Below, in pieces: positions 2,566 to 58,354 of a stretch of DNA of 64,000 nucleotides. A program made the translations under genes and the position numbers. How positions within the stretch are numbered: position 1 is the stretch's first letter; each line of letters opens with the position of its first letter. Under the pieces are notes generated by a model. That model saw only the letters and a program-made list of their open reading frames with translations. It was not told the origin of the DNA and made no database searches. Source of the stretch: Gekko japonicus (taxonomy: Eukaryota); contig NW_015174849.1 in the NCBI RefSeq assembly GCF_001447785.1, positions 16,760 through 80,759 of the forward strand, given 5' to 3'.

Positions 2566-2780
2566 ATGATCTTGCGTCTGCTGCTGCTGCTGCTGCTGCT
2601 GCCTCTTGCAGCCTGCCGGGTGGGGAGGGTCAAATGCCCATCCATTGGAATGACAGATGAAACAGTACCTTTTAATTACTTCCGAACAGGAGACTACCTT
2701 ATTGCTGGACTCATCACCTTTTTACTTAGAAGCATCCCACCACGAACCTTCAGGGAGCCTCCCTTTTTAATGAGAACAGT
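2566..2780 (+). CDS. V2R (vomeronasal type-2 receptor, class C GPCR) exon 1: signal peptide and start of Venus-flytrap domain
   Basis: ATG at 2566 gives MILRLLLLLLLLPLAACRVGRVKC...YFRTGDYLIAGLI (signal peptide plus class C GPCR 'GDYxIGG'-like motif). Donor GTAAGT at 2781, phase 2. Confidence 0.9.
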
Positions 2781-3979
2781 GTAAGTCAGTCCTCGGTGAA
2801 CCTTTTCAGCGTGTATGATGGGACAGAATTGTGGGTTCTTTCTTATGAACAACTGTCAGTGTGCCGCTTTGCTTCTATCTCCTGCATCTGATAAGCGAGT
2901 AAAATGTTGCCAAGTGTTTCCCACTGCCAAGAATCTGGGAATCAAGCATTTTATAACATATTCCCAAATTGGAGAAAAAACAGTAGGATTTGCTCACTTC
3001 ACAACTTCACTACCACAGCTCCTTGAAACCCAAAACGAACAAGCGGCAAAGAGCCTCCAGCAGGGTGATTTTCAAGACAGGTTCCTCAAGGAGAAAGAGA
3101 TTGCCTGATTCCTGTCCTTACATAATGACTGGGAGGAGGATTAAAGCCCGGTCCTCTGTAGTCTCAGTGGAATGTAACTGCTGTTGGACTGCGGGGGGGG
3201 GGGGCTTGCATTTTAAAAAAATCTGTAAAGTCAGATTGCCAATTATTATTTGAGAGAGCATCTTTCTTCTTCTTCTTCTTCTCACAGTGTTCCCTCTGAG
3301 CAACCCTAGTTCCTGGCCCTACCTGAGCTTTCATCACCTGTCCTGCTCCTGCCTCTTTCCTAGCTTTGGATGACGTCACCTCCTCTTGCCATCTCCCCCA
3401 GGTCCGAGGCCCTTGTCTTGTTCTCCTCCCCCTCCCCTTCTCTCTCCTAGCTGCTGCCCTTTAACTCTCCGGACCAGTTATCTAGGGTTGACAACCTCCA
3501 GGTGGCGCCTGGGGATCTCCTGCTATTATACCTTTTTATTATTAATTTTATCAGAACCATAAGATATAACCTGTTACAACAATAAGCCTCACATGAAAAC
3601 AACAAGACATATCTGTGGCATAAATGTAAACTGCCGATAACTCTAAAATAACCTGTTTCTAACTCTTAGAAATACAACAATTCTTGGTAATGTTTGTTTT
3701 TAGGAATTACTTCTCCCTCTGCAAGGTATTGAACCACTGGGAACCATACTGCTTGAAATGCTTTAGCGTTCCAGTGTGTTTGAGGAAACATTATTTTCCC
3801 ATAAACATCTTTCAGGTGAAATTTTAGTCCTCCTTTCACTGGCAAGGCAGCCCTGATAAACCTCACTGCGAACCAGTCGAAGCTGTACCAATCCTAGAAG
3901 AAAGAGACTGCATTTCCACAGGTAGCCCAGCACTGGGATACTGCCCCAAAGGATCGTGTGTGATACACCATCCAGGTGC

Positions 3980-4190
3980 TGGGACTGCTGTGGCTCAGTG
4001 GAAGAGCCTCTGCTCTGCATAGAGAAGGGCCCAGGTTCAATCCTTGGCCTCTCCAGTTAGAAAGGACCAGGCAGTAGGTGCTGTGAGAGACGTCAACCTG
4101 AGATCCTGGAGAGCCACTGGCAGTCTGTGTAGACAGTTCTGACTTTGACGGAGCAGAGGTCTGCTTCAGTAAAAGGCAGCTTCAGGTGTG
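3980..4190 (+). mobile_element. tRNA-derived SINE (Squam2-like)
   Basis: A box GTGGCTCAGTGG, B box GGTTCAATCC, non-tRNA body. A related inverted copy lies at about 15822-16010. Confidence 0.65.
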
Positions 4191-4298
4191 CTCTCTCTCT
4201 CTCTCAGTCTCCAAAAATGACCAATTTCATTGTCACTGCAAATCACCACAACCAAGGGCGTAGACTTTCCAATTTCCCGGGGGGGGCTGGGGCTGGGC

Positions 4299-4468
4299 CA
4301 GAGGCATTGCTAATTCATTAAAAGAACTGGGACCCAATGACATCATAGGGAGGAGCTAGTGATATCACAGGCATGGTCACTATCTATGGAGGTGGACCCA
4401 TGTGGGATTTAGGCATGGGCTCCCCAGAAATTTAGGGAGGCCTGGGAACCGCCCTAGCAATGTCCCTG
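4299..4468. mobile_element. hAT MITE nested in the left end of the composite element
   Basis: TIRs CAGAGGCATTGCTA / TAGCAATGTCCCTG; TSD GGCTGGGC at 4291-4298 and 4469-4476. Confidence 0.75.
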
Positions 4469-4991
4469 GGCTGGGCTAACCCCAGGAACAGTTGCCTTCT
4501 TAGCACACTGCTTAGAAACTTAGAAAGCCCCCCACACTGGAATAAGAACATAGTATCAGGCCATACCACATTGCAATAAAGCCCCTACAACTGTATACAG
4601 AAATACTGAGCTTCCCTAACATTTGCCACAACTAGCCCACCACACAAGAAGAAGAAGCGGTGATGTCAGGGGGCGTGGCATATGCAAATAAGTTATGCTA
4701 ATGAGTTATGCTAATGAGCTCCGGCAGCTCTTTTTCTACAACAAGACCCCTGCATACATGTATGACAGAAACTGCTCATACTAGGTTGCCAGGTACCTCC
4801 CGGCCACTGGCGGGGGATGCCAGATACAGACTGGGAGCCAGCAGGCTCTGTTTCAGGCCATCCGCCACAGCCTCCAACCCCTCAAAAAGTTCTCCTCTTC
4901 CGAGATCTATCATTGGAAGCATTAAATAAACAGAGAAGCCTTAAACCCATCACAACTAGGCTTGCTAATGCATGCATTCATTACAGATAAC

Positions 4992-5328
4992 AACATAAGA
5001 GAAGCCATTGTTGGATCAGGCCAATGGCCCATCCAGTCCAACACTCACACAGTGGCCAAAAATACCAGGTGCCATCAGGAGGTCCAGCAGTGGGGCCAGG
5101 ACACTAGAAGCCCTCCCACTGTGCCCCCCCCAAGCACCAAGAATACAGTGCATCACTTGCCCCAGACTGAGAGTTCCTATCTATAGCTTGTGGCTAATAT
5201 CCACTGATAGATCTTTGCTCCATATGTTTATCTAATTCCCTCTTGAAGCCGTCCATGCTTGTAGCTGCCACCACCTCCTGTGGTAGTGAATTCCACGTGT
5301 TAATCACTCTTTGGGTGAAGTACTTCCT
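4992..5328 (-). mobile_element. CR1 LINE 3' end
   Basis: Near-identical to the copy at 35027-35382 and overlapping 628-1177; begins with the AACATAAG tail motif. Confidence 0.85.
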
Positions 5329-6189
5329 CGTCTGGTCTGCTACAAGTAGTATCATCCTTAATCACCAAGAGAAGACCTATGTAGCTACAAGATCTAGAGA
5401 GCAGGCAAGGTCTCCTCCAAGCTTTAAACATCGAAGCTCCAGCAGACCCTCCAAAGATTTCTTCAAAGGAAGAAAACAAATGGAGCAAAATACCAATTAC
5501 ACAGTCTCAATAACATTAAAGCTAGCATTAATACTGATGCACTTTCTCCTTATTCTTTTCTTAGTTATATGATATGTAATTTGAACAAGGGATCAAGGTT
5601 GTTTCCTTGAACAAGTCATGATTTGGGCAATAGGATTGATGAAATTTTTGTTTAGAGTCTGGGGGGGGGGTACCTATTAGAGAGATTGACATAGAGGTCC
5701 AGTTAGCTTGCCTGAGGGCCACAATATAACTGTAATTAGTGAAAATGAGCCTTGTTTGCTTCAGAAACAGCGGTGCTACCCTGTTTGTTTAAGATGGGGG
5801 AGATAAATTACCAGGGCTTGAAATGCTCGTTAAAGATATGCATTATTTTCTCAAACCCAGTGGCCAATGTGAGGATGGCGTGGGGATGGTATAATTTCCT
5901 GCGAAGTCCTTCCCATGCTGTGTGCTCACAGGCTCCTTGGAGCTGAGCACCATATAATTGATGTGCAGCCTGCATTGCTGAAGCTTGGACTGCACCATTC
6001 TCAGCGTGAGGGAAGATGTAATCTGATCTCCGTGCCGCTAAGGGAGGAATCTATTCAGTCAAGGCTTTGACAGGGCAAACTCTCCCTCCAGGCTTCTCCC
6101 CCCCCCCTTTCATTATTCCCTTAAGTTCTTCTCAGACAAGCTGTATGCATGTATGTGTGCCTGGAGAAGCTGCTTGATACCGAGCTTCG

Positions 6190-7264
6190 TTCACGTTTGT
6201 TTGCAGTGGAGTTTGGTCAGAGCAAGCGGGCCCCTTTCTTCTGACGGCCAAACGCAAAGCCGAGGGCGGCATGCCGCGTCCTCCCGGGCCCGGCGCAGCC
6301 TGAGGGCGCAGGAATCCGGCCCAGGGTGAATTCCGCGCACTGTTCTCCAGCTCAGGCGGCTCGTTGGCGGCCGCAGCTGGGGGGGGGCGCAGGCAGGCTG
6401 GAAAGGAAGGCGGGAGGGAGGCCGCCCGCTTGTTTCTCTCACCACCGGGAGCCGGGCAGGCAATGCCCAGGCAGCAGGGACTCACCGAGGGACGCAGATG
6501 GGCGCGGAGCCATCCATCTCCAGGCCGAGATTTCCGAGCCCTTCCGCCTTCCTCCCCTCTGCCTCGGCAGCCCAGTGCGGTGCGCGGCCGCGTGCCTCCT
6601 TTGTCCGACCTCCCGCTCTTCTCCCGTGCCCCCATTGCCTCTCTCGCGCACGAGCCAGTGCACTCACACGTGCCACCACTGCACGCGGTTAACCAACCCC
6701 GCCGGCCATGCAGAGGGCGCGTGGCGGCGGCCCCGCCTCCCCCGTGACGTCCCGCACCTGGCCGCCCTCTCGCCCAATGAGCGGCCACAGGGCCAAGGGC
6801 GACGAGCGGCGGCTTCTGCCTGGGGTCTGGCCTGGCGCTCCGGAGCGATGGCGGCGGCAACAGCGGCGGTGGGTCGCCCCACGGAGGCCTCCCGAGCGGG
6901 GCGGCAGCGGCGCCCTCGGGCGAACAGAGTCATGGGCACTCCCCACTTCTCCCTCCCCCCCTCCCCGGCCACTGGACTGGAGGCAGCCGCTGCAGCCACG
7001 TGCCGGGCGGGTGAGGCGCGGCAGAGAGAGAGCACCTCTACCCACCCATGCCGCCGCGGCCTCCCCGGGCACGCACAGCCACCTGAGAGGCGCCTCCGGA
7101 GCGGGCATTTGCGTTCCCCCCGGCCAGAGCCGCGGGGAGGAGGAGGAGTGAGGGAAGCCGGCCAGCCGAGGAGAGCAGCAGCGGCTCTTTGGTGCAGGGC
7201 TGGCTTGGGAGGGCCAGGGGTGGGCGGGGCTTCTGGGAAATTTCGGGGGGGGGGCGGGAGAGCC
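6190..7264. promoter_or_regulatory. CpG-island-like GC-rich segment with promoter-type motifs
   Basis: CpG-dense against a CpG-poor background. GC box CCCCGCC 6731-6737, CRE-like TGACGT 6745-6750, CCAAT 6774-6778, ATGGCGGCG at 6848. Confidence 0.5.
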
Positions 7265-7519
7265 NNNNNNNNNNNNNNNNNNNNNNNNNNNNNNNNNNNN
7301 NNNNNNNNNNNNNNNNNNNNNNNNNNNNNNNNNNNNNNNNNNNNNNNNNNNNNNNNNNNNNNNNNNNNNNNNNNNNNNNNNNNNNNNNNNNNNNNNNNNN
7401 NNNNNNNNNNNNNNNNNNNNNNNNNNNNNNNNNNNNNNNNNNNNNNNNNNNNNNNNNNNNNNNNNNNNNNNNNNNNNNNNNNNNNNNNNNNNNNNNNNNN
7501 NNNNNNNNNNNNNNNNNNN
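7265..7519. other. Assembly gap (255 N)
   Basis: Run of N flanked by very GC-rich, G-run sequence. Confidence 1.
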
Positions 7520-7658
7520 GGGCTGAAGCCCCCCAGCCCCCCCGAAGATTACGCCGGTGACCACAACTGCTTTTGCCCATACCAGGTAATGCATCAGCAA
7601 GGCCCAGGTGCATATGGCATCCCTAGAATATATTACATGTTTATGTATTTCCTGGCAG

Positions 7659-7950
7659 GCTTCGAGGGCCAATCTGGCACCGCTTTGCCTTCTCATTGGC
7701 CATTCAGGAGATCAACCAAAATCCCAGACTCTTACCAAATAATATCACCCTCGGCTACACCGTCTATGACAACAATATGCATCAAAGAATGACGTCTAAT
7801 GCTGTGCTAGACCTGCTGTCCTCTGGCCAGGAGATCATTCCAAACTACAAGTGTGGCAGACAGAATAACCTCTTGGCTGTTCTTGAAGGGTCTGAGTCTG
7901 ACATCTCCATTGACGTTTCAACACTCTTGAGCACCTACAAAGTCCCACAG
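7659..7950 (+). CDS. V2R exon 2
   Basis: Acceptor CAG ends 7658; reads (V)[38 protein letters not shown]...IPNYKC...YKVPQ, with the canonical AIxEIN..LLPN.TLGY motif. 292 nt; donor GTATGA at 7951, phase 0. Confidence 0.93.
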
Positions 7951-8249
7951 GTATGAACCCGGGATGGGGCCAATGTCTCTGGAGAAACACTGATGGACTT
8001 CAAAATGTTTCTGGCACAGATCAAAACCAGGTTTTAGGGGAGTTGAGGGGATTTGAGAGAGAATTTGGTCCTCTGGTGATTGATCTGCATCCCTCCTTAC
8101 ACTAGTTGTACTAGGTTCTGAAAAAGTCTTTGTTGCCTGGAGGAGGAACCCAACAAAGGAACTCTCTGCAAAAAGGGACTCCCTTTCTTAGATGGCCTGT
8201 ATACATCTTCCTTTAGAAGCTGAAAACTTTTGGAACAGCCAGCCTGGTG

Positions 8250-8455
8250 CAGTGTTCCCTCTAAGCTGAGTTAGTGTGAGCTGGCTCACAGTTTTTTAAC
8301 CTCTAGCTCACACATTTTTGTCTTAGCTCAGGAAGGATGGCTCCAGAGCAAATTAATTCATGCAGCAGCCAAATCGCTTGCTCACAACTTTAATGCTGGT
8401 AGCTCACAAAGTAGAATTTTCGCTCACAAGATTCCAAAGCTTAGAGGGAACATTG
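8250..8455. mobile_element. hAT MITE family A, copy 1 (206 bp)
   Basis: TIRs CAGTGTTCCCTCTAAG...CTTAGAGGGAACATTG; TSD not clear. Confidence 0.85.
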
Positions 8456-8547
8456 GTGGTGGAGTATGGAAATCTAGGAATATTGACTTATAGAGCCTCA
8501 TTTGAGCAAACGTTATTTTGTGTGAGAGAGATTTCTATATCAATATG

Positions 8548-8890
8548 CAGAGGTCATTTCGGGGGGGATCGCGGGGGATCGCAGTTCCCCCGGGTGAGGT
8601 GTGGGAGGGCGGGGCACACGATGAAGCCACACCCCCTGCTTCCAGCCGCCCTGCTTCCGGCCCTCATTCAGCCAGGAGGGGGCAGGAGAAGAGGGAGGGT
8701 AAGTTGCTTCTTCCCCACCTCTCCCCACCCCTGCCTGCCTGGGGCCAGGGAGGGCCTTGGCGGGGCTTCCTCGCACTCCCGCCGGCCTTGCAGGTCCACC
8801 GCCGGGCCTTATGATGTCAGGGGGTGTGGCATATGCTAATGAGTTATGCTAATGAGTTCCCCTAGCTCTTTTCCTATGAAACGACCCCTG
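8548..8890. mobile_element. hAT MITE family B (GC-rich core)
   Basis: TIRs CAGAGGTCATTTC / GAAACGACCCCTG; exact TSD TCAATATG at 8540-8547 and 8891-8898. Confidence 0.85.
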
Positions 8891-9215
8891 TCAATATGAT
8901 TTGCATTTTTAAAAATTGTTTTGTCTAATGAAAACGTCGTTGTTTCACCTTCCGAATGACCTGGTGAGGGTTACAGATCTTGGGTTCTTATGGGTCAAGG
9001 TTATCCCTAGGGCAAAACCTCTCCTCCACTTCTGATCACCACTGAAAGTGATGCCACAGTGTGGGAGATCTCCATCAGAAAAGTTCAGGGCTGAAAACAA
9101 TCCCTGCGTTTCAAGGGTTTCCCTTTAACATCATAAAGCTATATGAAGCATTTTGTAAAATTTATTGACAGTTATTTAAAGTGATGAAATCCAAATGTGA
9201 CTTCCCCCCCATCAG

Positions 9216-10037
9216 GTCAGTCATGATGTGGATTTTACAGTTCTTAAGGATCAAACTCGGTTTCCTTTCTTCTACCAAATGGCCCGAAAGGAAGAAGCCC
9301 ACTACCTGGGCATTGTCAACCTGCTCCTGCATTTCCGATGGACGTGGGTTGGTCTCTTTGCTTCTGACACCGACACTGGGGAAAAGTTCAAGAGCACCTT
9401 GACACGTCTCATGCTCAGGAGTGGCATCTGTGTTGCCTTTGCACACAGCTTTGAAGAACGTGGTGTTGGTGCCTTTATTTGGCCAGAAGAAAGAAGGCAA
9501 CGCTTCAGTTCATTTCTCACTGAAGACCAAGTCAATGCATTTGTTTTCTATGGAGATTTTGTATCCCTAATATTTCTTATAGTGAATTTAAATCAAATGA
9601 AAGTCAAACGGCATGGAGTTTGGATCACAACTCTTTCGTTCAACTCCCTCTTCAGCTTGAACTGTCTTTCTATTCCCTTTGATGCCCTGTCTCACGGATC
9701 TTTCTCCTTGAGAATTCAAACAAAGGAAAGGGTGATGTTTCACAATTTACAAGTATGTAACCCTCTTCTCCAGGAGTTTGAGAAAGCATTTAATTTGGGT
9801 TACACAATTCCCATTTTCTCCTCGAGAGCCCAACGGAGATGCAGAGAGGCTGCAGAGAGGCTGGAGGACAGGAGTTGGGAAGTCCTGAAAGAACACCTGC
9901 CTCTCAGGGCCTACAATGTTTACACCTCCATCTATGCGGTGGCACATGCATTACATGCTGCCTACTCATCCAGATCTCAGAGGCTGATGAGGGCTGGTGG
10001 AGACAGATGGGACCATGAACGAATACAACCTTGGCAG
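9216..10037 (+). CDS. V2R exon 3
   Basis: Acceptor CAG ends 9215; VSHDVDF...RFPFFYQM...LLLHFRWTWVGL...GICVAF...VYTSIYAVAHALH...QPWQ. 822 nt open; donor GTATCC at 10038, phase 0. Confidence 0.93.
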
Positions 10038-10408
10038 GTATCCCTTTCCTGTAAATTGAGAAAACTATTCAGCAGTTTTTCATTGAAAGGATTATTGTGG
10101 ATCTAGACAGAAGTGGTTGTCAAGTAGCATTTAGCAAATTTCCAAGCCAAACCCAGTCTCTGACTCCCTTGGGAACCTCCTCCTTCTTGCTCCCTCTGGG
10201 GAACTGAAGAGGGGAAATCCCCATTAGTTCCCCCGGGGTGCCCTACTGCTCATCCTTCTTACTGAACGGAAACTCTCCCCCTCACCACATTCAGTTCTGT
10301 CCACAGTCTGGGCTGGACTGACTGGGATGCAAGGGGGAACTAAGATCAGCCAGCCAACCTTAGTGACATTTCCATGTATGTTTCAAGACAAGATTCTTAA
10401 CATGAGGT

Positions 10409-11201
10409 TTGTTGTTGTTGTTGTTGTTGAGTCGCACTGTCGAGTCCGACTCTTTGCGACACCATGGAACACATCACGCCAGGCCGTCCTGTCTTCCGCT
10501 GTCCTCTGAAGTTGGCTCAATTTCATGTTGGTTGCATCGATGACACTGTCTAACCATCTCATCCTTTGCCGTCCCCATCTTCTTTGACCTTCAATCTTTC
10601 CCAGCATCAGGGTCTTCTCCAGTGAGCGCTCCCTTCTCATTGGGTGGCCAAAGTATTTGAGCTTCAGTTTCATTATCTGGCCTTCCAGGGAACAGTCAGG
10701 GTTGATTACTTTTAGGATTGACTGATTTGATCTTCTTGCAGTCCAAGGGACTCTCAAGAGTCTTCTCCAGCACCATAGTTCAAAAGAATCTATTCTTCGG
10801 CGCTCGGCCTTCCTTATCGTCCAACTCTCGCAGCCATACATGACTACTGGGAATACCATTGCTTGGACCATGCGTATTTTTGTTGGCAGGGTGATGTCTC
10901 TACTTTTTATCATGCTGTTTAGGTTCGCCATCGCTTTCCTCCCAAGGAGCAGGCGTCTTTTAATTTCATGGCTGCAGTCACAGTCTGTGGTGATCTGGGA
11001 TCCCAGGAACGTGAAGTCTGTCACCACTTCCGCGACTTCCCCTTCTATTTGCCAAGGAGTGATGGGGCCGGATGCCATGATCTTAGTTTTTTTGATGTTG
11101 AGCTTCAAGCCCACTTTTGCGCTCTCCTCTTTTACCCTGAGCAAGAGGCTCTTTGGGTCCTCTTCACTTTCAGCCATTAGAGTGGTATCGTAGAGTGGTA
11201 T
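10409..11201 (-). mobile_element. RTE-BovB LINE, 5'-truncated, open reading frame retained
   Basis: DTTLMAESEE...GLKLNIKKTKIM...HEIKRRLLLGRKAM...VFPVVMYGCESWT...FELWCWRRLLRVPWTARRSNQSIL...LKYFGH...MRWLD; (CAA)n 3' tail. Confidence 0.95.
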
Positions 11202-11758
11202 TAAGACACATACAGGCAATTAATTCATTTGGGAAACAAATTTGTGCTCAGTCCTCCTTAGTTATTTCTTAGACAATGGGGATTTCAATTGCCGAAAGTG
11301 CGGACTATTCTGCAATAATTGTCTGAGAAAGGTTATGGGTGGTCCAGAGTCATCACCAGTGGTGGATTTCTTGTATTAGCCAACTTAAAGCATTGCCCAC
11401 AATGGGTAGGAACGTTCCTGTAGATTTGAGGGCAGAGCCTGGCCATGGACCCTTTCATTGAGAGCCAACGCAGTTTAGTGGTTCGTGTTTTGGCCTGGGA
11501 TTTGGGAGATGCTGGTTTGAGTCCTCATATACCACTGAACCTTCGGCTAGTGACTCCCTCTTATCCTAACACACCTCAGTCATTGGGGGGAGAAGACTCT
11601 TGCTACCATGAAGAATTTGTCATTGTTTGCTTAAAGGAAAGCATGGTGTAGACATCTAAATGTATAAAACTGATGAGTAAGAAGAATACCACAGCTGCAA
11701 TGACTTTGTAGAAGAGTCTTCTGTCTTCTAAATGCTGCTGTTTTCTTTGTGATTCCAG

Positions 11759-11986
11759 CTTCATCCGTTCCTGAGACACTACCAGTTTCACAACACTTCT
11801 GTGGGTGGGAAGGATTTGGGTGAAAACGGGGACCTAGAAGTCAACTCAGACATTGTGAATACAATCATCTTGCACAATGGTTCCGTCTCGAGTGTGAAAG
11901 TTGGGAGAATAGAAAGACAGGCCTCTGGGGAGATAAAGCTGACCATTGATCAGGAAGCTATTGTGTGGCCCCTTTGGTATAAGCAG
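11759..11986 (+). CDS. V2R exon 4
   Basis: Acceptor CAG ends 11758; LHPFLRHYQFHNTS...ENGDL...DIVN...VKVG...IVWP...KQ. 228 nt; donor GTGGGG at 11987, phase 0. Confidence 0.92.
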
Positions 11987-12243
11987 GTGGGGAAATTCAT
12001 TACTTTTTGTTTTTATTAAGGTTGCATGACGTAGAAAGATCTGCTTAGTACCATACATGAAACCTCCACGGGAGTCTTATGAGCCTTTCATTTGAAACAA
12101 TAGTTATCAAGGTTTCTAGTAATAAGCACATGAAATGTCACATTTAATCAAATCTATATTTTATGAAGACATATATAAAATATTATTGCCAAATAATAAA
12201 TTCTAATTCCTCCAGATAATGCTCCTTGTCTTTGTGTGCATAG

Positions 12244-12370
12244 AGGCTGCCTGATTCCAGGTGTACCCCCAGCTGCCTCCCTGGACATGCGAAAGTGACC
12301 CTGGAAGGAAAGCCCATTTGCTGCTATAACTGTTCCCGGTGTAGAGAAGGAACCATCTCCAGTCAGGAAG
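12244..12370 (+). CDS. V2R exon 5 (first part of the cysteine-rich domain)
   Basis: Acceptor TAG ends 12243; [42 protein letters not shown]. 127 nt; donor GTGGGT at 12371, phase 1. Too short to appear in the ORF track. Confidence 0.93.
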
Positions 12371-12669
12371 GTGGGTGACGGGAGGACGTCCCTTTGGGTA
12401 TGGGGTAAAGAATAAGTTCGTTATTTCTGAGCATTATTCTAGAACTTTGTTGACTAGTCTAGAGGAAAGACCTGATGGGGAGAGGCTCCTGGGTAAATGG
12501 TGGTGAGTATGGAGAAAAGTTCAGCACCACCAGCTTTTGACGCTTTCAATGGCATTCATTGTTTTTAGCACAATGCCATACAGTGTGGTCCTTTATTTGC
12601 ACGGTCAGTCCTGTCAGACAAATCAAGCTTTACTGGAGTCTTGGAGCATGCAACCGTATGCATTATAAC

Positions 12670-12875
12670 CAGTGTTCCCTCTAAGCTGAGTCACTGTGAG
12701 CCAACTCACAGTTTTTTAGCCTACAGCTCACAGATTTTTGTCTTAGCTCGGGAAGGATGGCTCCAGGGCATGCTAATTTATGCAGTAGCCCAATCACTCG
12801 CTCACAACTTTAACGCCAGTAGCTCACAAAGTAGAATTTTTGCTCACAAGACTCCACAACTTAGAGGGAGCATTG
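12670..12875. mobile_element. hAT MITE family A, copy 2
   Basis: Same TIRs; exact TSD ATTATAAC at 12662-12669 and 12876-12883. Confidence 0.9.
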
Positions 12876-13542
12876 ATTATAACCCCCCCTCCCGGTATCT
12901 TCTGCAGGCTCCTTGGATCCCTGGAGAGGCATGCAGATGTCCCTTGGTACACCCCTTGATGTCACACAGGTTGTAGCTGAGTGATTTTGAGCCACTTATT
13001 ATTTCACTGGGTTGGTGTGAGGATATTGAGGGAGAATTCCATGTATTTCAAACTGAAAGGCGACATCCACATGCAATTCTCAAGTCATGGTTTTCTCCTT
13101 GGCTTCATTGTACCTCTGGGTTTCTACTGGAACACTCGGCCTTATAATGAAGCTGAGGTCTATCTGAGCCACAGGACTTTGATAGTGGCTCTCCCATAAC
13201 TGAAGGAGTTATGCTTTGATAACCCAGGAATCCCTTGGTTGTGCTGATACCAAGGATGAACCAGGAACACTGCCTTGCACAGCTTTTAATCTTCCAGTGA
13301 GCCTCTGTTCTTCCCAGATCATTCCATGTAACCGTGTTTTGACTTCATCCCATCTTTGTCTTCTATGGCTCTTGAATAATTCTGTTTGAGGAAGAAACAG
13401 CTTTCGCCACTGTAACGGATTATTCTGCCTGGGTGAAGGATGTGGGGAGAACCTTCAGGACCTCTTGGTGACATCATTAACTGCAAATTCCATTTGGGGA
13501 CATTGGTTGGGTTTGGAGTAGTGGAAACAGGCATTTAGTTGG

Positions 13543-13600
13543 TCCTCTTCTTCCTCCTTCTCCTCTTCCTCTTCTTCCTCCTCTTCGTCTTCCTCCTCCT
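13543..13600. repeat. (TCC/TCT)n polypyrimidine microsatellite
   Basis: Imperfect trinucleotide run. Confidence 0.9.
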
Positions 13601-14169
13601 TGACTGACCAATTGAAGAAGGTGCTGCTGAGAGATCGCTGTTTCCCCCTGTTGTTCAAGCTATGTTTCACCTTGTGGGAGGGGGGAGAAAGGTATTTCTG
13701 GTCATTAAGGGGAAGTCTGTGGTTTCCAGTTTGTATTTTTTGTATTTCAAAGAGTCAGGTTAGGTTTTCTGGACCTGATGCTCATCTTCCGTAGTCAAAG
13801 GACAACTATGGAGAACTAATTGCCAAGTTCTGTGGTTTCCAATTTGAAGAGGGAGAGCAGGATGAGGCACAAAGGCCTTCAGCCTCCCCCCTGTGCAGTC
13901 GTCTCAGCCCCAAACAGCCTCTTCTCTCCCTGTCCCATAGTCTTTATTGAAACTGTATCTCTGCAGCACTTGAGAAATTAGTCATATGCAGCTGACATTT
14001 GGATGTGTGACATTTTGAAGTGCCACATCTAATCTGAGCCTTCATTGGATTACCTGGTGCTGGATGCAAAACAGACAGAAAAGAAGAAAAGCCCTTTGCG
14101 GGGAATATAAAGCCCTAGCTCAGTCGATCCAGTAGAACACTTCAGTTCCTGAGCAATAATGCATTTTCA

Positions 14170-14815
14170 AGGTATTTGTGGGCTCAGTGCGGCTCACAAC
14201 ACAAAATCAACAAACAATAATAACAACAAAACAATAAATAGTCCCGGGGGGGTGGGGAGGTAGGGAATTAGTTACCTGATTAGCCGAAGGTGATAAAAGG
14301 CTGATCTGGCAACCAAAATGGCCTGGGCCCCCAAAGTAAGTGAGGAATCCAGCATCAAAGACTCCTTACCTCTGGCACTGGCACCAATGGCACCCCACTG
14401 AAGACCGGGAGCCTAATTCCCAATCCAACCCTCCCACAACTCTGTTGGTCTGTTGGATTCAACTCTAGCCGACTCTGCTGCAACCATCCAGCCACAGCCG
14501 TCAAGGCCTGGTTTAAGATATCTGGAGCGGAGTCCAGTCAGCTGTCCGTCAACAGATAGTGCTGGGTATCATTAGCATATTGATGACAGCCCAGTCCAAA
14601 TTCCTGGATCCATTGGGCAAGGGGATGCATATAGATGTTGAATAACATTGGAGAGAGGATCGCCCCCTGCAGTACCCCACATTTCAGCGGATATCGTGGG
14701 GACATCCTCTTCCCAAGCGCCACCCTCTGTCCCCGACCATGGAGAAAGGAGGAAAGCCATTGTAAAGCAGTCCACCCGTATCCCAATGTCGGCAAGGCGG
14801 TGGGTCAGTAGATCA
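14170..14815 (-). mobile_element. L2 LINE reverse transcriptase fragment
   Basis: LQWLSSFL.GRGQRV...CGVLQGAILSPMLFNIYM.PL...GCHQYANDTQ. Confidence 0.85.
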
Positions 14816-14929
14816 TAGTTGTTGTGTACCAACTGAGGACCGCACACGCGGTCGGGTTAGCATGTGTGCATGCGAAGAAGCAAAGCTTCGCATCCAGAGA
14901 CAATAGCCAGCACGGATCCTAGAGGGGAC

Positions 14930-15135
14930 CAGTGTTCCCTCTAAGCTGAGTTAGTGTGAGCTAGCTCAGAGTTTTTTAGCCTCCGGCTCACATATTTTTG
15001 ATCTTCGCTCAGGAAAGATGGCTCCAGAGCAAACTAATTTATGCAGTAGCCAAATCACTTGCTCACAACTTTAGTGCTAGTAGCTCATAAAGTAGAATTT
15101 TTGCTCAAAGACTCCACAGCTTAGAGGGAACATTG
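14930..15135. mobile_element. hAT MITE family A, copy 3
   Basis: Exact TSD GAGGGGAC at 14922-14929 and 15136-15143. Confidence 0.9.
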
Positions 15136-15492
15136 GAGGGGACCTATCAGGTAGTCAGGATCCGAGTAATGACCTATGGGATTTGGGGACACTGTAAATA
15201 ATCCTATTACAGGTGTGGGTGGGTGTTGGGTGTGGTTTGCAATGGGGATTTAAGCAGGCCTCTGGTCCTGCATATCTGTCTCAGTTTTTGCTAGCCAAAT
15301 AAACTATGAGCTGATTCACCACCAATGCATCCTGGCTCAGTATATTATAATAGTCAACTGTCAAACGCTGCTGTCAAGTCTAAAAGCAACAGCAGCGCTG
15401 ATCCACCTTGATCTATATGCCTCTGGAGATCATCTGTGAAGGCAACTATCGTAGCCAGGGTAGACACAGATCAGTTATATATGTGCTGTCAT

Positions 15493-15710
15493 TTTTGCTT
15501 CTTTTTCCTCATGAGTTCTGGGAAGTGAAGGTTTTTTTCCTCTTGTTCACACTGCTACCAGGTTGGGGGAAGTTCCCAGTAGATGCATCTAAGTCAGGTC
15601 AGAAATTTTGCTTCCTTTTTCTCAGTGGTTCTGGGAAGTGAAGGCTTTTTCCTCTCCTCCACACTGCTGCCAGGTTGGGTGAAGAGTCCCAGTAAATGAC
15701 TCTGAGTTGT
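15493..15710. repeat. Diverged tandem duplication, two units of about 110 bp
   Basis: Both units share TTTTGCTTC...GTTCTGGGAAGTGAAGG...CACACTGCT.CCAGGTTGGG...TCCCAGTA. Confidence 0.75.
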
Positions 15711-16199
15711 ATTTTGCCCTGCGCCTCCCATATGGTTGCCTTCTCCTTCCCTTTTCCCCTCCATCTGATGTTTCAGCTGCCTTCAACAGGGGCTGTGGAG
15801 ACAGGGGGAAAACAAGCTGTTCTATATAGTATCAGACCATGGGTCCATCAAAGTCAGTATTGTCCACCCAGACTGGCAGTGGCTTTCCAGGGTCCCTGGT
15901 GGAAGTCTTTCACATCAGCTCCTACATCATCCCTTAAACTGGAGATGCTGGGATTGTACCTGGCACCTTCTTCATGCAAAACATGACTCTTTCACCGAGC
16001 CACAGCTGTGACCCTCCCCAGGCCATTTGAGTGCTTGGCCTGTGTTTGCTCCATTAGTTCCTCTGACCAGATGCAGCGGAACTGGAGATTGAGCTACTCG
16101 GACTATTCCCACAGCAGGGTGAGTTTCCCAATCTGCCTTCACTCCTGTATTTTCTAGCTAAAGTCTGCTTTACGTACATTGCTTGAAGTTGCTGAAAGG

Positions 16200-16577
16200 C
16201 AGGGCTATTTTTGGGCAGGAACGCACAGGAACGGAGTTCCGGCTGGCTTCAGAGTTGGCCACGCCCACTACAGCCAAAACCTCTGCATGCGTGGCTACAG
16301 AGGGAAGGCCTGGAGAACAACACCCCCCGGTGACTTTGAAGCGGGTGGGCGGGGGGGGCGCTGGAAGGATTGGGAAGACATTTAAATGCCTCCCCCGGCC
16401 TATCCAAAGGCTGGCTTGCCTGGGCAAGCCAAGGGAAGGCATGGGGGGGTGGCCTAATATGTTGTCAGCTGTGCTGTCGGGTGTGTGTGTCCTAATATGC
16501 TAATGAGTTCCTGCTGTTGGGTGTGGCCTATGATGCTAATGAGTTCCTGCTGGGCTTTTTTTACAAAAAAAGCCCTG
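16200..16577. mobile_element. hAT MITE related to family B
   Basis: TIRs CAGGGCT.TTTTTG / CAAAAAAAGCCCTG; exact TSD CTGAAAGG at 16192-16199 and 16578-16585; shares the TATGCTAATGAGTT motifs. Confidence 0.85.
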
Positions 16578-17079
16578 CTGAAAGGTATTTTATGGCATTT
16601 TATATCCCTGGTTTTTGTTTTCCCTTTTAAAAAGTTGATATATCATCATTGATCTTATGTTGTTGGCTAATCATTTCATTGAGCTGTGAGCTGTCTCCAG
16701 TAGTTCTGTGGGAAGGTGAGAATTTCTTAATACATAAATATTTGCCATCTTTATTTTTTAGCTCTGTGCTTGTTTTTAATAGATGCACTTTTTAAACCTC
16801 TCTCTCCATTTGAAAATTTGTGTGTGGTTTTTTTTTTTTAAATTGTCTAGTGCGGTTATTTTTCTCTGGTTAAGGGAGAAGTGTTTTTGTGCTCTTGAAA
16901 TGTATTGCCTTGATAGTGGCTTTAAGCCCAATGACAGAAAGGGCAGCAAATGCCATAAATGTATAATTTTCTTATAATTCTCACCGTGGTGTATAGGTGT
17001 TATGGAATCTAAAGGAGTACAATTGTTGTGGATATGCATGAGATATGCATGATGCTAAAGTCATGCTTTTCCTTTCCAG

Positions 17080-17990
17080 ATGCAGATCGTTGCACCAAGT
17101 GCCCAGAAGATCAACATCCCAACCTGGACCACACTCAATGCATTCCCAAAGAGATTACTTTCCTTTCTTATGAGGATACTTTGGCGATTATCCTCATCGT
17201 TTTGATCCTATTCTTGTCCATAGTCACGCTTCTCATTCTAGGAATCTTTATTAAATACAGTGGTACGCCAATAGTCAAAGCCAATAACCGAGACCTCACC
17301 TACATTCTTATCATCTCACTCCTGCTTTCCTTCCTATCCTCCCTGCTATTCATTGGCCAACCAAGGAGAGTGACCTGCCTTCTCCAACAAACCACCTTCA
17401 GCACCATCTTCACAGTTGCTGTCTCTTCTGTGTTGGCGAAAACGATCACTGTGGTGGTGGCCTTCATGGCCACCAAGCCAGGAAACAGGATGAGGAAATG
17501 GCTGGGGAAGCGTCTGGCAAACTCTATCGTCATTCTGTGTTCCACTGTTCAAATTGGCCTCTGCCTCATCTGGCTGAGTATCTCTCCCCCCTTCCCAGAG
17601 TTTGATATGCACTCTCATCATACACAGATCATATGGCAATGCAACGAAGGGTCTGTGGCCATGTTTTATGGCGCCCTGGGCTACATGGGCTTCCTGGCTG
17701 CCATTTCCTTCACAGTGGCTTTCCTGGCCAGGAAGCTTCCTGGGGCCTTCAACGAAGCCAAGCTGATCACCTTCAGCATGCTGGTCTTCTGCAGCGTTTG
17801 GGTGTCCTTTGTGCCCACCTATCTGAGCACCAAGGGGAAATACATGGTAGCCGTGCAGGTCTTCTCTATCTTGGCCTCCAGTGCTGGCTTGCTGGGCTGC
17901 ATCTTCATCCCCAAATGTTACATCATTGTAGTGAGGCCTGATCTGAATATCAAGGACCATCTCATGATGAAAAGTCAAGATGGAATTTGA
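17080..17990 (+). CDS. V2R exon 6 (end of cysteine-rich domain, 7TM domain, C-terminus)
   Basis: Acceptor CAG ends 17079; [15 protein letters not shown]...[11 protein letters not shown]...SSVLAKT...CNEGS...[21 protein letters not shown]...[16 protein letters not shown]...FIPKCY; TGA at 17988-17990. Confidence 0.96.
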
Positions 17991-18672
17991 TTTCTCAGAA
18001 CAGCATTTTTCATTGTTGCAATTTTACCACATGTATTGTCTGTGAACCCACCTCACAATTGAACTCTATGATACGCTTCTGAAGAAAATTTCCTTCACAT
18101 ACATCCTGACAGATACTAGTCACAAATCATGTAGGCAAACACTTAACAGCATAGCAATGGCCACAGCTAATTTCCTTAGCATTAGTTGTTGATCTCACCT
18201 TGCCTCCCAGTTGTTTGATGGTAATCTGCCCTCACTGAATGATACAGAGCATCTAGTCTCACATATGCTTAAGAGTTGGATGGGTAGGAGCAATTGGAGA
18301 AGATTACCAGCTCTTTCTTTGATTGATTACTTTATTTAAAACATCTTTAGAATCCCTTTCCACTTGATCAAGTTCCCCAGGGCAATGAACATGAAAAGAT
18401 TAAGTATTTTGAAGAAGTTCAATCAACCAGGAGAATGAAAGGGCAGTTTTGTCTTACCCCGGCAAATGTAATTGTCTGTCTTTTCAAATGACCACCAGTC
18501 CTGACATGGTGGTTTATGTCTGTCATGTGGGATTCATCCCCTTTAAAACAGACGTATTTGAAACTCAGAGTCTCTTTTGTCTGCTGCAAATCAACACATT
18601 GACCACTAAATTACAAGACTGTATTGACACTATGAAATGATTATTTTCTCTTATAACCTATCTCTGACCGTA

Positions 18673-18678
18673 AATAAA
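18673..18678 (+). promoter_or_regulatory. Candidate V2R polyadenylation signal
   Basis: AATAAA about 680 nt downstream of the V2R stop codon. Confidence 0.35.
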
Positions 18679-19598
18679 CCCTCTGACTGAACATCGATGC
18701 ATCGATGAATGATATCGGACACAGAGAAGTCACCTCAAGCCACAAGGGAAAGGTGGGGTAGAAATGTTTTAATTTTTTACAGAGTAATCCTGTGATGTGC
18801 CTGCATTGTGGTCCCTGGCCACTGTGTAACTATGGCATTGCTAGTCCATTCCCTATGGGTACAAGTTATGCAGTGGCCAGTAGACAAAGCTGGTGGGTTT
18901 GCAGTATTTTCTGATCATTACCAGGGTAGCATCTACAGGAACCGTGCAGCAGTGGTCAATGGAGGTGTTGGAGGCAGTGGTACTATGATGGATGGGGCCA
19001 TCAGAACCAATCAGGGGCCATGTTGAAAGGGGGCGGAGACCAGCATCCATCTTAGGCAGGGGGTGGAAAGGGGCGGGCCTAGGAGTTCTGCTTGTTGTCA
19101 GGAACAAACATCCCTCACCCCCTTAATGGGACCCACTCCTGTTAGCAGATCCAGGCACTTGATAGTGGGGAAGGGGTTTGAGCTGTCTGCTCCACCGACA
19201 TGCACAGCTGCCTCAAGGCCCACACAGATCATGGGGTCCCTGAAGGGCAGAAGGAGGAGATGCCATTTCCACCCTATGCACTTGCTCACCAAAGGGCGCA
19301 CTTCACTGTAGCACAGCCACATTGCTGAGAGCACTCCCACACCACCCCTTCCAGTTGTGGAGCAGGAGAGGGGGCCACTGGGGTGGGCTGAGATGTTGGG
19401 GCAATGCAGCACCACCCTGAGATCCCCCAATTCCCTCCTCAATGGAGCAGAGGTGGTCATGGACTGGAATGACCGTCCTTCCCCTCTGTCATTCCAGTCC
19501 CAGGGCAATCAGTGCCCCGAGGCAGTCATTCCAAATCCATTCTGCATTCATCATTACATCTATGTGTAGTAATGACATAGCAAGGTACTGCATATGGA

Positions 19599-19828
19599 GC
19601 ATATGGAGCAGAGGTCCATCAGTGGCTATTAGGGGCTCTGGGGCAAGTGATGCTCTGTCTTTTGGTGCTTGGGGGGGGCAACAGTGGGAGGGCTTCTAAT
19701 GTCCTGGCTCCACTGGTGGACCTCCTGATGGCACTGGTATTTCTCGCCACTGTGTGACACAGAGTGTTGGACTGGATGGGCCTTTGGCCTGATCCAACAT
19801 TGGCATCTCTTATGTTCTTATGTTCTTA
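19599..19828 (+). mobile_element. CR1 LINE 3' end
   Basis: Reverse complement of the 4992 and 35027 copies; ends in a (TTATGTTC)n tail. Confidence 0.85.
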
Positions 19829-20109
19829 ATAGAAACAATGCATTCCTAGCTGTCAGTATGTCACCACCTCCAAAAACACAGAGTCGGCCCTCTGCATTGG
19901 CTTCCCCCTACCCTTTCACTCTTGAGACCCTGTGATCCCCTGCCCCCTCACTGTTACCTTCACAAATGTCTACCCCCTGGGTGACCCTTTTTTTAGAGCA
20001 GACACACAGTTATGAACTTCAGTTATCCACTCTATCTAAAGCAGACCTTTCTCCCTTGCGTGGCTTGCATCGTTCCCCTCTTGAACATTTTATGCTCACA
20101 AGAACCCTG

Positions 20110-20860
20110 TGAGGTTGGTTAGGATTGCCTTCTCGAGATCCAGGTCATCCTGGCTTACCAGCTTCCTCTGCAGTTTTGGTTCCCTCAGTCCCACTAGGAA
20201 CTGGTTGAGGAGTGTTTCTACAAGACTGGAGAAGGAGCACCTGGTCACATCCCGCCGCAGAGCCACCAGGAAATCTGAGGCGGTCTCGTCGGGGCCCTGG
20301 ACTTTTGCGAAAAAGTCCAGGCGCTCCACAAACTTAGTTGGTTTGGGAGCAAGGTGGTCGGTCAGCGCCTTGACCAAAGAGTTGTATGACTCGTCTTTGG
20401 TCAGCTTGGGCGCTATTAAGTCCTTAAGCAGGAGATGGGTCTCCATCCCACAGTGGCGCAGCAGGTACGCTTTTTTTATACCTGGATCCACTACGTTGTG
20501 GATGGTGAAGTGGCTCTTGAGGGTTTCCAGCCAGGTTTCCCACTGTGAAGGTTGGGAGATATCGAAAGCTGGGAGGCTCTCTGATGCGGCAGCCATCTTA
20601 CGGGTTCCATGTGGAAGCGAGCGGCGTAGATGGCGGAGCGGTGCAGGGCTGCTCTTGGGGCAGGCCCGTAGCCTGCGTGGGGCCCTGGGGGCCGGGCCCC
20701 CCTGTGGATTTTGTGGGCCCCCTCCCCCGATCTGCTCCCCCCATGTCCAGAACGTGGTCTCTGTTCAGAGGGAGATTAATCCCACCTTCGTCGCCAGTGA
20801 AAAGTATGCAGACGGAGAGTGATTTCAGCAAAGCGTACTGGATACATTACAATTGTATAT
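20110..20860 (-). mobile_element. Gypsy LTR retrotransposon 5' remnant: LTR end, tRNA-Ser PBS, gag N-terminus
   Basis: ORF 20096-20596 has a Mag/K02A2.6-like gag pattern (FD...WE.W.E....F...KKAYLL..CG...ER..F....Q...E....F...LR.....C.F). On the minus strand ...TTTTCA is followed by C TGGCGACGAAGGTGGGATT (20778-20796). Confidence 0.85.
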
Positions 20861-21711
20861 ATAGGAGTGGTTTGTTAACTTAGCATGCAAAATAGTGAGG
20901 ACACATTTTCTTTTTTTAACAGTTCCTGGTTGTCATCTGTTTTGGTTCAACTGGGGGGAAAAACAACATAGGTAATAAATATGTTAGAACTGGAGACTGA
21001 TGTGCCCTAATTTGTGAGAATCCTGTCCTTAAACCCCATCCATCTCCTTTCAAGCATGGAGCTGAATTTTACAGCATCTTGGGTGTGTAAGTTAAGTAAC
21101 AGTAAGTTAGGATCATTTTTAGATCCAAGCACATTTTCTTTCTTTCTTTCTTTCTTTTTTTTGAAGCCCCCAAAGGGGGATTTTTTTATTTTTATTTTAA
21201 CAACTACAAAAACTACTACTGTTGTTGATCTGTTGTTTATCTAAATGCTTGTCTTGCTTGGATTGGTATAGCGGGGAAGTGATGAACCTCTAAAGATGGG
21301 GAGGGGAACAAATGAGCACACACGTTTGCAATAAAGCATATCTGGTGCAGGCAATATACCTCAGAAGAGCAGAAGCAAGAGGCAAAATTTACAGTCACTG
21401 CACATTTTCAAGTTCCAGATAAATTGGCAGAAATGGGCGTTTTTTTGATAAGCTCTGCCGAGAAGAAAATAGCATAGCTTTTGCAGATAGAAAGTTTTGC
21501 CTCACCAGTGATTCAAAGTGTTTTCAAAAGGTGGAGAAGAGTGACCCTGTAAACAAAATATACTTGGGCAGGGGTGGACTCTGAAGTTAAAATGACTCAG
21601 GAGCCAGCCAAGCTGTGTTGCTCCTTCATAGGGTTGCCAGGTCCCCCCGCCCCCCGCCAGGGGAAGGGGTATAGGGTTACCAGGTCCAGGTTGGCAAACT
21701 CCTGGAGATCT

Positions 21712-22350
21712 TAGGATAGGGCTTGGGTAAAAAACCAGATTGATCTCTGTTTATTGTTTCCACTAATACTTTTTTTCAGTCTCTGTGCCAAAATTGATGC
21801 ATAAATCTTATAATCCACATTTAAAAGTGAAATCGGTCTATAATTTTTCATTTCTTTCTCATCCGAGTTATGTTTATGAATCAAAGAGATAATTGCTTCT
21901 TTCCATGTCTCTGGGATTATACCCTGTTCTCTCGCCATATTGCACATCTCCTTAAAAGTCAGTGCAATTTGTTCTTCAAACACGAGATAAAATTCTATCG
22001 GTAGACCATCCGGTCCCGGAGCTTTCCCTCTATTCTGTCTCTTTATTGCTTCAACCACTTCCATCATTGAAATTGATTGATTTAAGATTTTTCTTTACCC
22101 TTATGTAAATTTCCACAATTGATATTTTTCCAAATAGCCTTTAATTTTTTCAGTGCCCACTGATGTATGTTTTCCCATATAAGATTTTATAATATTCCTC
22201 CATTGCTTTTTTAATTTCCTCATTTCTATAAATTTCTTTTCCTTCTTTTCAATACTTTGATGAAAGTTCTTTCCTTCTGTTGCCTAATTTTGTATGCCAA
22301 CCATCTTGTAGGTTTGTTTGCATTTTCAAAAAAAAATTGTTTTGCAAAAT
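21712..22350 (-). mobile_element. L1-clade LINE reverse transcriptase fragment
   Basis: KAPGPDGLPIEFY...WKEAIISLIHK...NYRPISLLNVDYKIYASILAQRLK; upstream ENANKPTRWLAYK. Confidence 0.9.
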
Positions 22351-36774: not shown

Positions 36775-36775
36775 T

Positions 36776-38365: not shown

Positions 38366-38369
38366 GGCA

Positions 38370-38582: not shown

Positions 38583-39239
38583 CATCAGGATTATGGATTC
38601 CTCTTTTCAGGCAAGGTTCAATGAGCAAGGGGTTGCAGCCACTTATAAAGGCTCCTTATTTATTTAGAGTATTTTTGTACCCCACCTTTCTGCCAACACA
38701 GTCAGGGCTGAAACATTTTGTTTCCATTCTAAATTCCTATATTAGAGAAATATGTTAAAACAGAATTCTCTTCATCATTGCCCATTATATACTATTATTC
38801 TTTTGTTTTATCTTTGATAGTCAAATTTTGTGCCATTACTAACAAAACAGAACAAAACCAAAAAACCTCAACATCATCTCTGGTTTATTTTGCATGTTAG
38901 CAGTGGCAGTAGTGTTTTTATAAAGTTATATTTTCCCCAGTACTTCTCATACTATGTCTTTTTTCTTGTTTGAATAAATCCTTTTGGTTTTTGACATGAT
39001 CCAGCAAAGAAAATGTACAATACTTCACTTTGTGCTATCCAATAATTTCAGTTGCTATTCAGATATTTTGCTGCTGCCTTTTGAAGAATATGTTCTGTTC
39101 TCTTATATAAAGGAATTGACTGGACTCAGAAAAAACAGCTTTAACTGGAATTAGCCAAACGTATTTACCTCTTCTTTCTAAATAAAGATGCAGGGTTTGT
39201 TCTGATGTGTTTCTGCTTTCCTCCAATTCCATTCAACAG

Positions 39240-56746: not shown

Positions 56747-57085
56747 TAGGGATGGGCACGGACTGGACCACGGACCTAATTTTTCCATCGACTGGGGCCC
56801 AGTTCTTGGTCCATGAGCCCGATCCATGCCATCCCACTAACATGAACCCCCACAAGTCCATGACCCTCCCAGGAGGTTCGTAAGGCCTGTCTTGGCAGGG
56901 CTGCAAAAACCATTTAAATTGAGTGCATTCCCTTTAAATGGCTCTGTAAGCTGCGTAGTGTCATGGACCAAACAGGCCACAACCCAGTCCGTTAAATGTG
57001 TAGGTTCGTGGTCTGGGGATCCTTAAGCCCCATGGACCTCCACACCTCAACAGACCACAATTTTTCTGGACTGTGCCCATTCCTA
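56747..57085. mobile_element. Non-autonomous DNA transposon (MITE)
   Basis: TIRs TAGGGATGGGCAC / GTGCCCATTCCTA; no TSD seen. Confidence 0.6.
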
Positions 57086-57344
57086 CTCCCTGAATTGACT
57101 GCTAGCAGTAACATGGATCACTCAGCAACAGTAGCACCAAGACTGTAATAGACTTGCTCCAGCAGCATCTTGTTTTCCTCAGTGGAAACAACTGCCACCA
57201 GAACAAGTGAGTTAAGCCTGGAATTAAAAAGAAGAAAAAAAGGAGCTGAAGTTTAGGTCCAAAGCTGCCTAAAACCCTATGACTAGATGTGACTGTGGTA
57301 AACAGCTCTAAGTGTGGGAGAGAAAAGCAAACTAAAATGTGAGA

Positions 57345-57635
57345 AGGTTCAGAGGGTAGCCGTGTTGGTCTGCAGGAGAACAGTTAGATTATGTCCAGTA
57401 CACATTATGGTCTGCAGTAGAACAGTTAGATTATATCCTGTAACACCTTAGAGACCAACAAGAGTTTCAGGATGTAAGCTTTTGAGTCAAAGCTCTCTTC
57501 ATCAGACACAGTAGAACAGAAGTGAAGATCCTTATTTTCTACTGTGTCTGCTAAAGGAAGCTTTGACTCTTGAAAGCTTACATTCTGAAACTCTTACTGG
57601 TCTCGAAGCAGCTGCTGGATTCTAATCTAACTGTA
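57345..57635. mobile_element. Penelope-like inverted pseudo-LTR pair
   Basis: GTAGCCGTGTTGGTCTG start; inverted arms at about 57420-57517 and 57536-57633, each with a degenerate hammerhead core. Confidence 0.65.
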
Positions 57636-58266
57636 GGATGTGAGAAATTATTTCAGGCAATACATACATGTGTTGGCCTAAAGGGCAAAGGGTACAACAG
57701 CTCCTCTATTCATGAAGCTTCCTCAATGGACTGAGGTCTTTGTTTCATGTTACCAGAAGTTTAATAGAAACCATATGCAGCTTGACTAGTGTCCAGAAAG
57801 GGTTGTTTGTGTATATTATTTTAAATGGCACTTTTTAAATTATCAGTATCTGAAACTGTGTTATACTTTTTTAGAAAGGCAATTAACACCTTATTGCACA
57901 GAAAGGATTGGCATATTGATAAAAATGTCTTAACCTTTTCAAGTATGCATGGAGAAAATTCTAGCCAATTAACTTATATAAAGAAACACACATTATTATT
58001 GACAATATAACTTGATCATTTACAGTGAGGGTCAGATTAATTTCAGACTTCTCTTACCTGAGAACATACCCAATACTGTTGTAACATTTATTATCATTAA
58101 AGTTTATGATTTGCCAGTGGTAGCCATAATCACATGATGTTAGCAGACTTATAAAAATCCTAACCCTTGTAGCAGATAAAATATTGTGTGTTGATCCAAA
58201 TGGCTTGATATAACTTAAAGGCAATAGGCAAGGCAAGATATCATACTTGTGCTTTTTCCATTTTAG

Positions 58267-58354
58267 GACTGCATCAAAACATGTAGATAAAGATCTTGGA
58301 AATCTAGAGGAAAATAAAAAGTTAGAAGAAAACAATCACAAGTCAGAAGCTTGA
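58267..58354 (+). CDS. ALCAM: ALCAM last coding exon (cytoplasmic tail)
   Basis: (K)TASKHVDKDLGNLEENKKLEENNHKSEA*; TGA at 58352-58354. The exon continues to donor CAG|GTAGGT at 58383/58384. Confidence 0.95.

Follow-up and report, generated by a model that had tools for sequence, protein, structure and literature searches.

Close to the beginning of a scaffold of 1,631,692 bp in the Gekko japonicus assembly, an intact chemoreceptor gene of the V2R type stands on the same strand as, and directly upstream of, the 3' half of ALCAM (CD166), whose first exons are missing. How did these two genes become neighbors? The stretch of 64,000 nucleotides analyzed here (G000:C15139:16760-80759; hereafter the window) had previously been described from its letters alone, and three readings had been offered: a V2R-bearing segment nested in sense orientation in an ALCAM intron, a 5'-truncated ALCAM duplicate next to a V2R locus, or a scaffold misjoin. 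The last of these, and the place proposed for the junction, were borne out by the analyses below, whereas the nesting and the duplicate were not. The adjacency is best explained as an assembly misjoin through two copies of one transposon family (probability roughly 0.95), while both genes, the V2R and the part of ALCAM present here, are real, intact, and ordinary; they most likely come from unrelated loci. Feature coordinates are given in Table 1.

Table 1. Features along the window (window coordinates).
Feature	Position	Strand	Remarks
V2R-type class C GPCR, 864 aa, six exons, intact	2566..17990	+	ORF, Pfam, and paralogues
V2R exons	2566-2780, 7659-7950, 9216-10037, 11759-11986, 12244-12370, 17080-17990	+	
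V2R 3' flank	17991..20121		homologous to flanks of paralogues on C4139 and C4706
Truncated gag-like piece, LTR retrotransposon family	20122..20660	-	many copies match from 20122, 82-90%
Left end (82 bp) of hAT-type transposon copy 1	20661..20742	+	preceding 8-mer TCTTGGGG
Foreign fill, 1,727 bp	20743..22469		C1808 match, then LINE, then MITE-like
Right arm (733 bp) of hAT-type transposon copy 2, left side cut	22470..23202	+	90-98% to other copies
Target-site 8-mer ATACACAC of copy 2	23203..23210	+	partner precedes left TIR on C142246
ALCAM intron 8, 3' 16 kb	23203..39239	+	single-copy stretches and interspersed repeats
ALCAM exons 9-15	39240-39352, 41033-41168, 42227-42360, 42846-42978, 45579-45617, 47509-47626, 58267-58354	+	open
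ALCAM alternative 57-nt exon	52186-52242	+	GC donor

The V2R gene and its flanks

The V2R gene proved to be as complete as the preliminary description had claimed. Its spliced exons amount to 2,595 nt, the sole stop codon is the terminal one, and the ligand-binding domain, the nine-cysteine domain, and 7tm_3 all lie within one open frame, with Pfam matches above the cut-off (ANF_receptor, NCD3G, and 7tm_3) in four of the five exons scanned. A look-up of the protein in the Atlas returned generic class C names only; its designation as a putative V2R rests on the domain order, on the expansion of the family, and on the six-exon layout, which is that of V2R genes. A paralogue on scaffold C4139 is colinear over the whole gene with window positions 1750-20090 at 76-89%, and a paralogous region on C4706 is colinear to about 20121. 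Exon 3 has at least 41 other matches in the genome at 70-88%, four of them on one scaffold (40 scored of 62 candidates). Upstream on the window's own scaffold lie a second V2R exon 6 (92% at the amino acid level) and a fragment, and the V2R block extends to the scaffold start. This colinearity, the second exon 6, and the expansion of exon 3 together identify the first 20 kb of the window as V2R-cluster DNA, and the gene probably belongs to a tandem cluster elsewhere in the genome. According to one study (10.1101/551978), squamate V2Rs cluster and fragment assemblies; of the 151 V2Rs of the Komodo dragon, 99 are grouped into 26 clusters, and scaffolds shorter than 10 kb hold many of the others. 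The gene described here resembles the members of such clusters in its class C GPCR domain order, its six exons, and its many close paralogues on small scaffolds, and there is nothing unusual about it.

The 3' flank of V2R ends in a SINE-like piece that is cut in the window and of which C4706 carries more. Microhomology at the 20121/20122 junction amounts to just 2 bp, and the V2R flank may have undergone a genuine, old deletion at this point. Just upstream of the window, the scaffold has a gap of 5,218 Ns bordered by a 529-bp duplicate (98% identical). Within V2R intron 1, the stretch 6200-7264 is CpG-rich (GC 72%, CpG o/e 0.75). It was rejected as a promoter, as it matches dispersed repeats and is missing from the paralogue on C4139.

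One ALCAM on three scaffolds

The ALCAM exons of the window are open from 39240 to a stop codon at 58352-58354, as had been noted before. They encode the second half of the Ig region, the stalk, the transmembrane segment, and the tail; the exon 42227-42360 has a GC donor at 42360. Their best protein matches are CD166 proteins, and their frame continues that of exons 1-8. The reported lack of earlier exons upstream was confirmed when four full-length gecko ALCAMs were compared by tblastn with the scaffold's first 160,759 bases: none of exons 1-8 was found in the window or in the 16,759 bases upstream of it. The only match with E<1 before ALCAM residue 338 was a chance one (E 0.74) at about 117 kb in window coordinates. 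A whole-genome search with another gecko's ALCAM (P0004) yielded 14 matches, namely 13 ALCAM exons, each found once, and one weak, unrelated Ig match. Residues 1-252 of P0004 (exons 1-6) are located on scaffold C2843 and end 8.7 kb from the scaffold end, residues 253-338 (exons 7-8) are on C8365 and end 2.3 kb from its end, and residues 339-590 (exons 9-15) are on the window's scaffold. Joined from the three scaffolds, exons 6-15 code for 399 aa, free of stops and gaps, with 95.5% identity to P0004.

Cbl_N exons were found on the minus strand at C15139:174588 and 161888, about 100 kb downstream of ALCAM, and the former scores 168 bits to CBL-B vs 119 to CBL. The synteny check proposed in the preliminary description thus placed CBLB tail-to-tail with ALCAM, downstream on the same scaffold. 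This is the usual order of ALCAM and its neighbor; a literature search on ALCAM, CBLB, and synteny found no paper on this gene order. Judged by sequence, the window exons are part of the genome's one ALCAM, at its CBLB-flanked place. The locus is like other ALCAM-CBLB loci in its identity to P0004 and in the position of CBLB, but differs in being split over three scaffolds in this assembly.

ALCAM is also broken between exons 6 and 7, where the end of C2843 faces the 725-kb C8365. An apparent overlap between the C2843 end and C8365:11850-12282 (88%) was discarded as a repeat with at least 39 other copies at 78-87%, and the 29-mer at the C2843 end matches the genome solely at a SINE-like piece on C2258. 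A Pfam scan of 140 of the 159 unmasked frames in C8365 13.5-100 kb detected no genes, but one reverse-transcriptase match.

Two ends of different transposon copies

The preliminary description had suspected a junction at about 21-23 kb, where the sequence seemed to become richer in AT. GC content indeed falls from 48.0% over 1-20121 to 43.8% over 23203-39239 and 38.2% over 39240-58354, a step that had been correctly placed, and the seam between the two parts (20661-23202) lies in the suspected interval. It contains no N and is part of a chain of cut repeats that extends from 20122 to 23202. The gag-like LTR piece at the start of this chain, of which a related copy exists on C1808, is the target into which the transposon on the V2R side was inserted. 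At the opposite end of the chain, all other copies that match the right arm 22470-23202 continue leftward. The bases 23205-24000, beyond the seam, are single-copy.

The TIR-to-TIR span of positions 20661-23202 is 2,542 bp and falls within the range of 2,246-2,723 bp in other copies (five copies, four of whose lengths include N runs). Nine other copies were fetched, of which seven were checked for their ends and five had both ends in the fetched 5 kb. All five are flanked by an exact 8-bp TSD, whereas the two ends in the window mismatch, with TCTTGGGG at the left and ATACACAC at the right. Because the flanking 8-mers are unequal here and duplicated in 5/5 other copies, the two ends in the window stem from different insertions. 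The interior between them has no match to any of the five full-length copies. The family troubles this assembly generally: N runs occur in four of the five copies, and an end is duplicated in two. Visual inspection of the one copy without gaps revealed no transposase-like frame. The element, about 2.5 kb long, is putatively a young, non-autonomous, hAT-type transposon. It shares the 8-bp TSD with non-autonomous hAT transposons and has short TIRs, of which 12 bp are perfect; the definition of hAT elements in PMC11008031 calls for TSDs of 8 bp and TIRs of 15 bp.

The DNA between the two ends is foreign to the element. Its first 1.28 kb (20743-22021) differ from a part of C1808 (about 48.8-50.1 kb) by no more than a single substitution and indels in homopolymers, and outside this stretch the identity to C1808 drops to about 88%. 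The middle of the fill is LINE sequence (~88%), and 22352-22469 is the first 118 bp of a very young MITE-like element of ~535 bp, which is 100% identical at 39/39 other listed places. Over 19401-39400, an interval dominated by repeats, one RNA run and the contigs of several other samples were aligned; eight pieces were listed per DNA run, and a further 539,887 lay beyond the listing. At 21228-21767 the depth was 66 in run X1 vs 70-85 in the other seven listed pieces, and 79 vs 44-104 in run X2; both runs have the C1808 letter at 21536. The C1808 match and the single-copy depth in X1 and X2 imply that this part of the fill is placed twice in the assembly, but exists once in two other animals.

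The probable course of intron 8

A right arm that stems from a copy in ALCAM intron 8 should have a partner left end preceded by ATACACAC. The pattern of ATACACAC plus left TIR has one match in 2.49 Gb (control, 0), for which the probability of a chance match is ~0.009 (580/65,536, with at most 580 candidate left ends). This match falls close to the end of C142246, an orphan contig of 277 bp that has no other close copy in the genome. C142246 begins with the 29 bases that, read in ALCAM sense, end C8365 2.3 kb past exon 8; this 29-mer occurs in the genome exactly twice, at those two contig ends. The left transposon end on C142246 differs from the window's left end at base 14. The end of C8365 has no direct overlap with the window, and the link runs via C142246 only. 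That C142246 continues across the interior of the transposon to 22470 is suggested by the TSD, and intron 8 would then consist of 2,344 bp of C8365, 221 bp of C142246, a transposon of ~2.2-2.7 kb, and window positions 23203-39239 (2,344 + 221 + about 2,550 + 16,037 = about 21.2 kb). The left junction on C142246 and the 29-base overlap with C8365 thus point to a real intron 8 of ~21 kb without V2R.

The aligned contigs are consistent with this course. Those of run X7, from a related species (organism B), align piecewise from 23203 to 38052. One of them starts to align at exactly 23203 and has 151 unfitting letters before this position, as an empty site would; these letters are a candidate empty site of copy 2. 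The eight pieces listed per DNA run, in which repeats dominate, include none that crosses or contradicts the seam and no contig that bridges 20742-22470. In the RNA run, no junction of exons 8 and 9 was displayed over 19401-39400, and the single-copy bins of this interval lack intronic signal (0-0.08), so that the seam is not placeable by nascent RNA.

A probable misjoin and alternative explanations

In summary of the seam, the V2R-side sequence stops 82 bp inside one transposon copy, the ALCAM-side sequence begins 733 bp inside the right end of another, and the true continuation of the ALCAM side is present elsewhere in the assembly, on C142246 and C8365. The scaffold misjoin listed in the preliminary description, which these different copies, the foreign fill, and the orphaned flank support, could have arisen in three steps. 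The scaffolder would have taken the 82-bp left end on the V2R contig and the 733-bp right arm on the ALCAM contig for one element and opened a gap of one element length between them; gap closing would then have replaced the Ns with 1.7 kb of repeat-bounded sequence from another place. One point against this account is that the right junction expected for copy 1, on the V2R side (right TIR, TCTTGGGG, and LTR), has no exact match in the assembly. With one mismatch allowed there are six matches, none of which (0/6) is followed by LTR sequence.

Among the alternatives, a real insertion fares best, although it is improbable. More than 37 kb of a V2R cluster, with a transposon copy of its own, would have entered ALCAM intron 8 in sense orientation after the split from a close relative. 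Recombination between two copies of the young hAT-type transposon, or alternative transposition, would have left hybrid elements at both ends, and the sequenced animal might carry the insertion in a fixed or a heterozygous state. Under this scenario, too, the TSDs would be mismatched and the left junction would lie on the orphan contig; it agrees with the lack of N at the seam and meets no opposing bridging data among the eight pieces listed per DNA run. TE-associated movement of V2Rs has been proposed in a varanid lizard (10.1101/2025.04.01.646716). However, recombination should yield a full hybrid element, whereas the interior is foreign DNA of element length, which is placed twice in the assembly and is single-copy in two other animals. 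The reciprocal junction is missing from the assembly, and most of the examined copies of this transposon family have gaps or a duplicated end. The nesting put forward earlier is not supported. A nested gene needs host exons on both sides, but no ALCAM exon exists upstream on the scaffold, and the 5' part of intron 8 reaches the transposon at 23202, downstream of V2R. If the insertion were true, a receptor cluster would recently have become nested, on the same strand, in a conserved gene, and ALCAM splicing would need to skip two or more V2R genes on its own strand together with their polyA sites.

Still less probable is a real chromosomal break, a translocation through the transposon that split ALCAM between exons 8 and 9 and made the V2R block its new neighbor. 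The second interruption of ALCAM, between C2843 and C8365, would fit such a history. However, all ALCAM exons are open and the protein closely resembles that of another gecko, suggesting that the entire ALCAM protein has stayed under selection, and the same assembly holds an intact intron 8 path. A 5'-truncated ALCAM duplicate next to a V2R locus, whose only point in favor is that this scaffold lacks exons 1-8, can practically be dismissed, as exons 9-15 lack a second copy in the genome and exons 1-8 another 3' half, CBLB follows downstream here, intron 8 is traceable to exon 8, and 38499-39400 has single-copy depth in X1 and X2.

Consequences for the V2R and ALCAM loci

In short-read assemblies, repeat-induced misjoins fuse unique regions via near-identical repeats, and gaps can be filled falsely. 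The misjoin proposed here resembles such errors in its fused unique regions, an orphaned flank, a twice-placed stretch, and a gene spread over several scaffolds. It differs in that the seam is free of N, and thus passes as clean sequence, and in that the error is provable inside the assembly by TSD bookkeeping. A literature search on ALCAM, V2R, and gecko found no paper. Hence the V2R-ALCAM arrangement is, in all likelihood, an assembly error and not a real feature of the genome. A cheap test for such misjoins is to compare the TSDs at both ends of a transposon and then to search the genome for the TSD plus TIR. The misjoin leaves ALCAM as partial gene models, P0122 with 250 aa and the public P0128 with 278 aa, the latter with a false first exon whose 26 residues, from window positions 31608-31685, replace exons 1-8. 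It also gives the V2Rs a false address beside ALCAM and CBLB, which would mislead analyses of synteny and counts of V2R clusters.

Second break in ALCAM

ALCAM is broken a second time, between exon 6 and exon 7 (regions G000:C2843:1-8673 and G000:C8365:1-13508). Exons 7 and 8 lie at the end of C8365, a scaffold of 725 kb, and the end of C2843 is 8.7 kb away from the end of exon 6. One repeat occurs in the same orientation at the C2843 end and at C8365:11850-12544; its copies are 82-88% alike, and this pair was the top non-self match among 40 scored. The likely join at the break is the 398-N gap at C8365:13111-13508.

Exon structure of ALCAM

The first 26 residues of the public partial model P0128 (278 aa) are taken from window 31608-31685, and ALCAM exons 9-15 follow. 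This segment, a false first exon, lies inside a repeated element of about 1.9 kb with inverted ends (about 30840-32770). Gecko proteins P0016 and P0033 also contain the 19 extra residues that the alternative cytoplasmic exon encodes. Past the ALCAM stop, a splice donor follows after 30 bases (58384) and an acceptor lies at 60210, which suggests that the last exon, from 60211 onward, is non-coding and holds the long AT-rich 3' UTR.

Splice features of ALCAM and MITE-like element in the window
Feature	Window position	Remarks
MITE-like element (~535 bp), left end	22352-22469	further copies L078-L082
GC splice donor of ALCAM exon 11	42360/42361	
Alternative ALCAM cytoplasmic exon, 57 nt	52186-52242	GC donor

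V2R surroundings, gaps and repeats

Upstream of the window, two V2R pieces (G000:C15139:5511-6419 and 7798-8482) comprise a second exon 6, 92% at the amino acid level to that of the window V2R, and a broken fragment with a SINE inside. The 5,218-N gap ahead of the window is flanked on both sides by a 529-bp stretch at 98% (window 57-585 and G000:C15139:11018-11541) and is probably false. In V2R intron 1, a CpG-island-like stretch (6200-7264, GC 72%) beside a 255-N gap matches dispersed repeats, and its counterpart is absent from the paralogue on C4139.

In two further copies of the seam transposon, L065 (G000:C5037) and L066 (G000:C1722), one end is duplicated (99 bp and 174 bp), and gap-closing errors are the probable cause. 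The MITE-like element is inserted at TA/TTA, with 2,014 candidates at first look; its copies are 97-100% identical, and it apparently went through a very recent burst.
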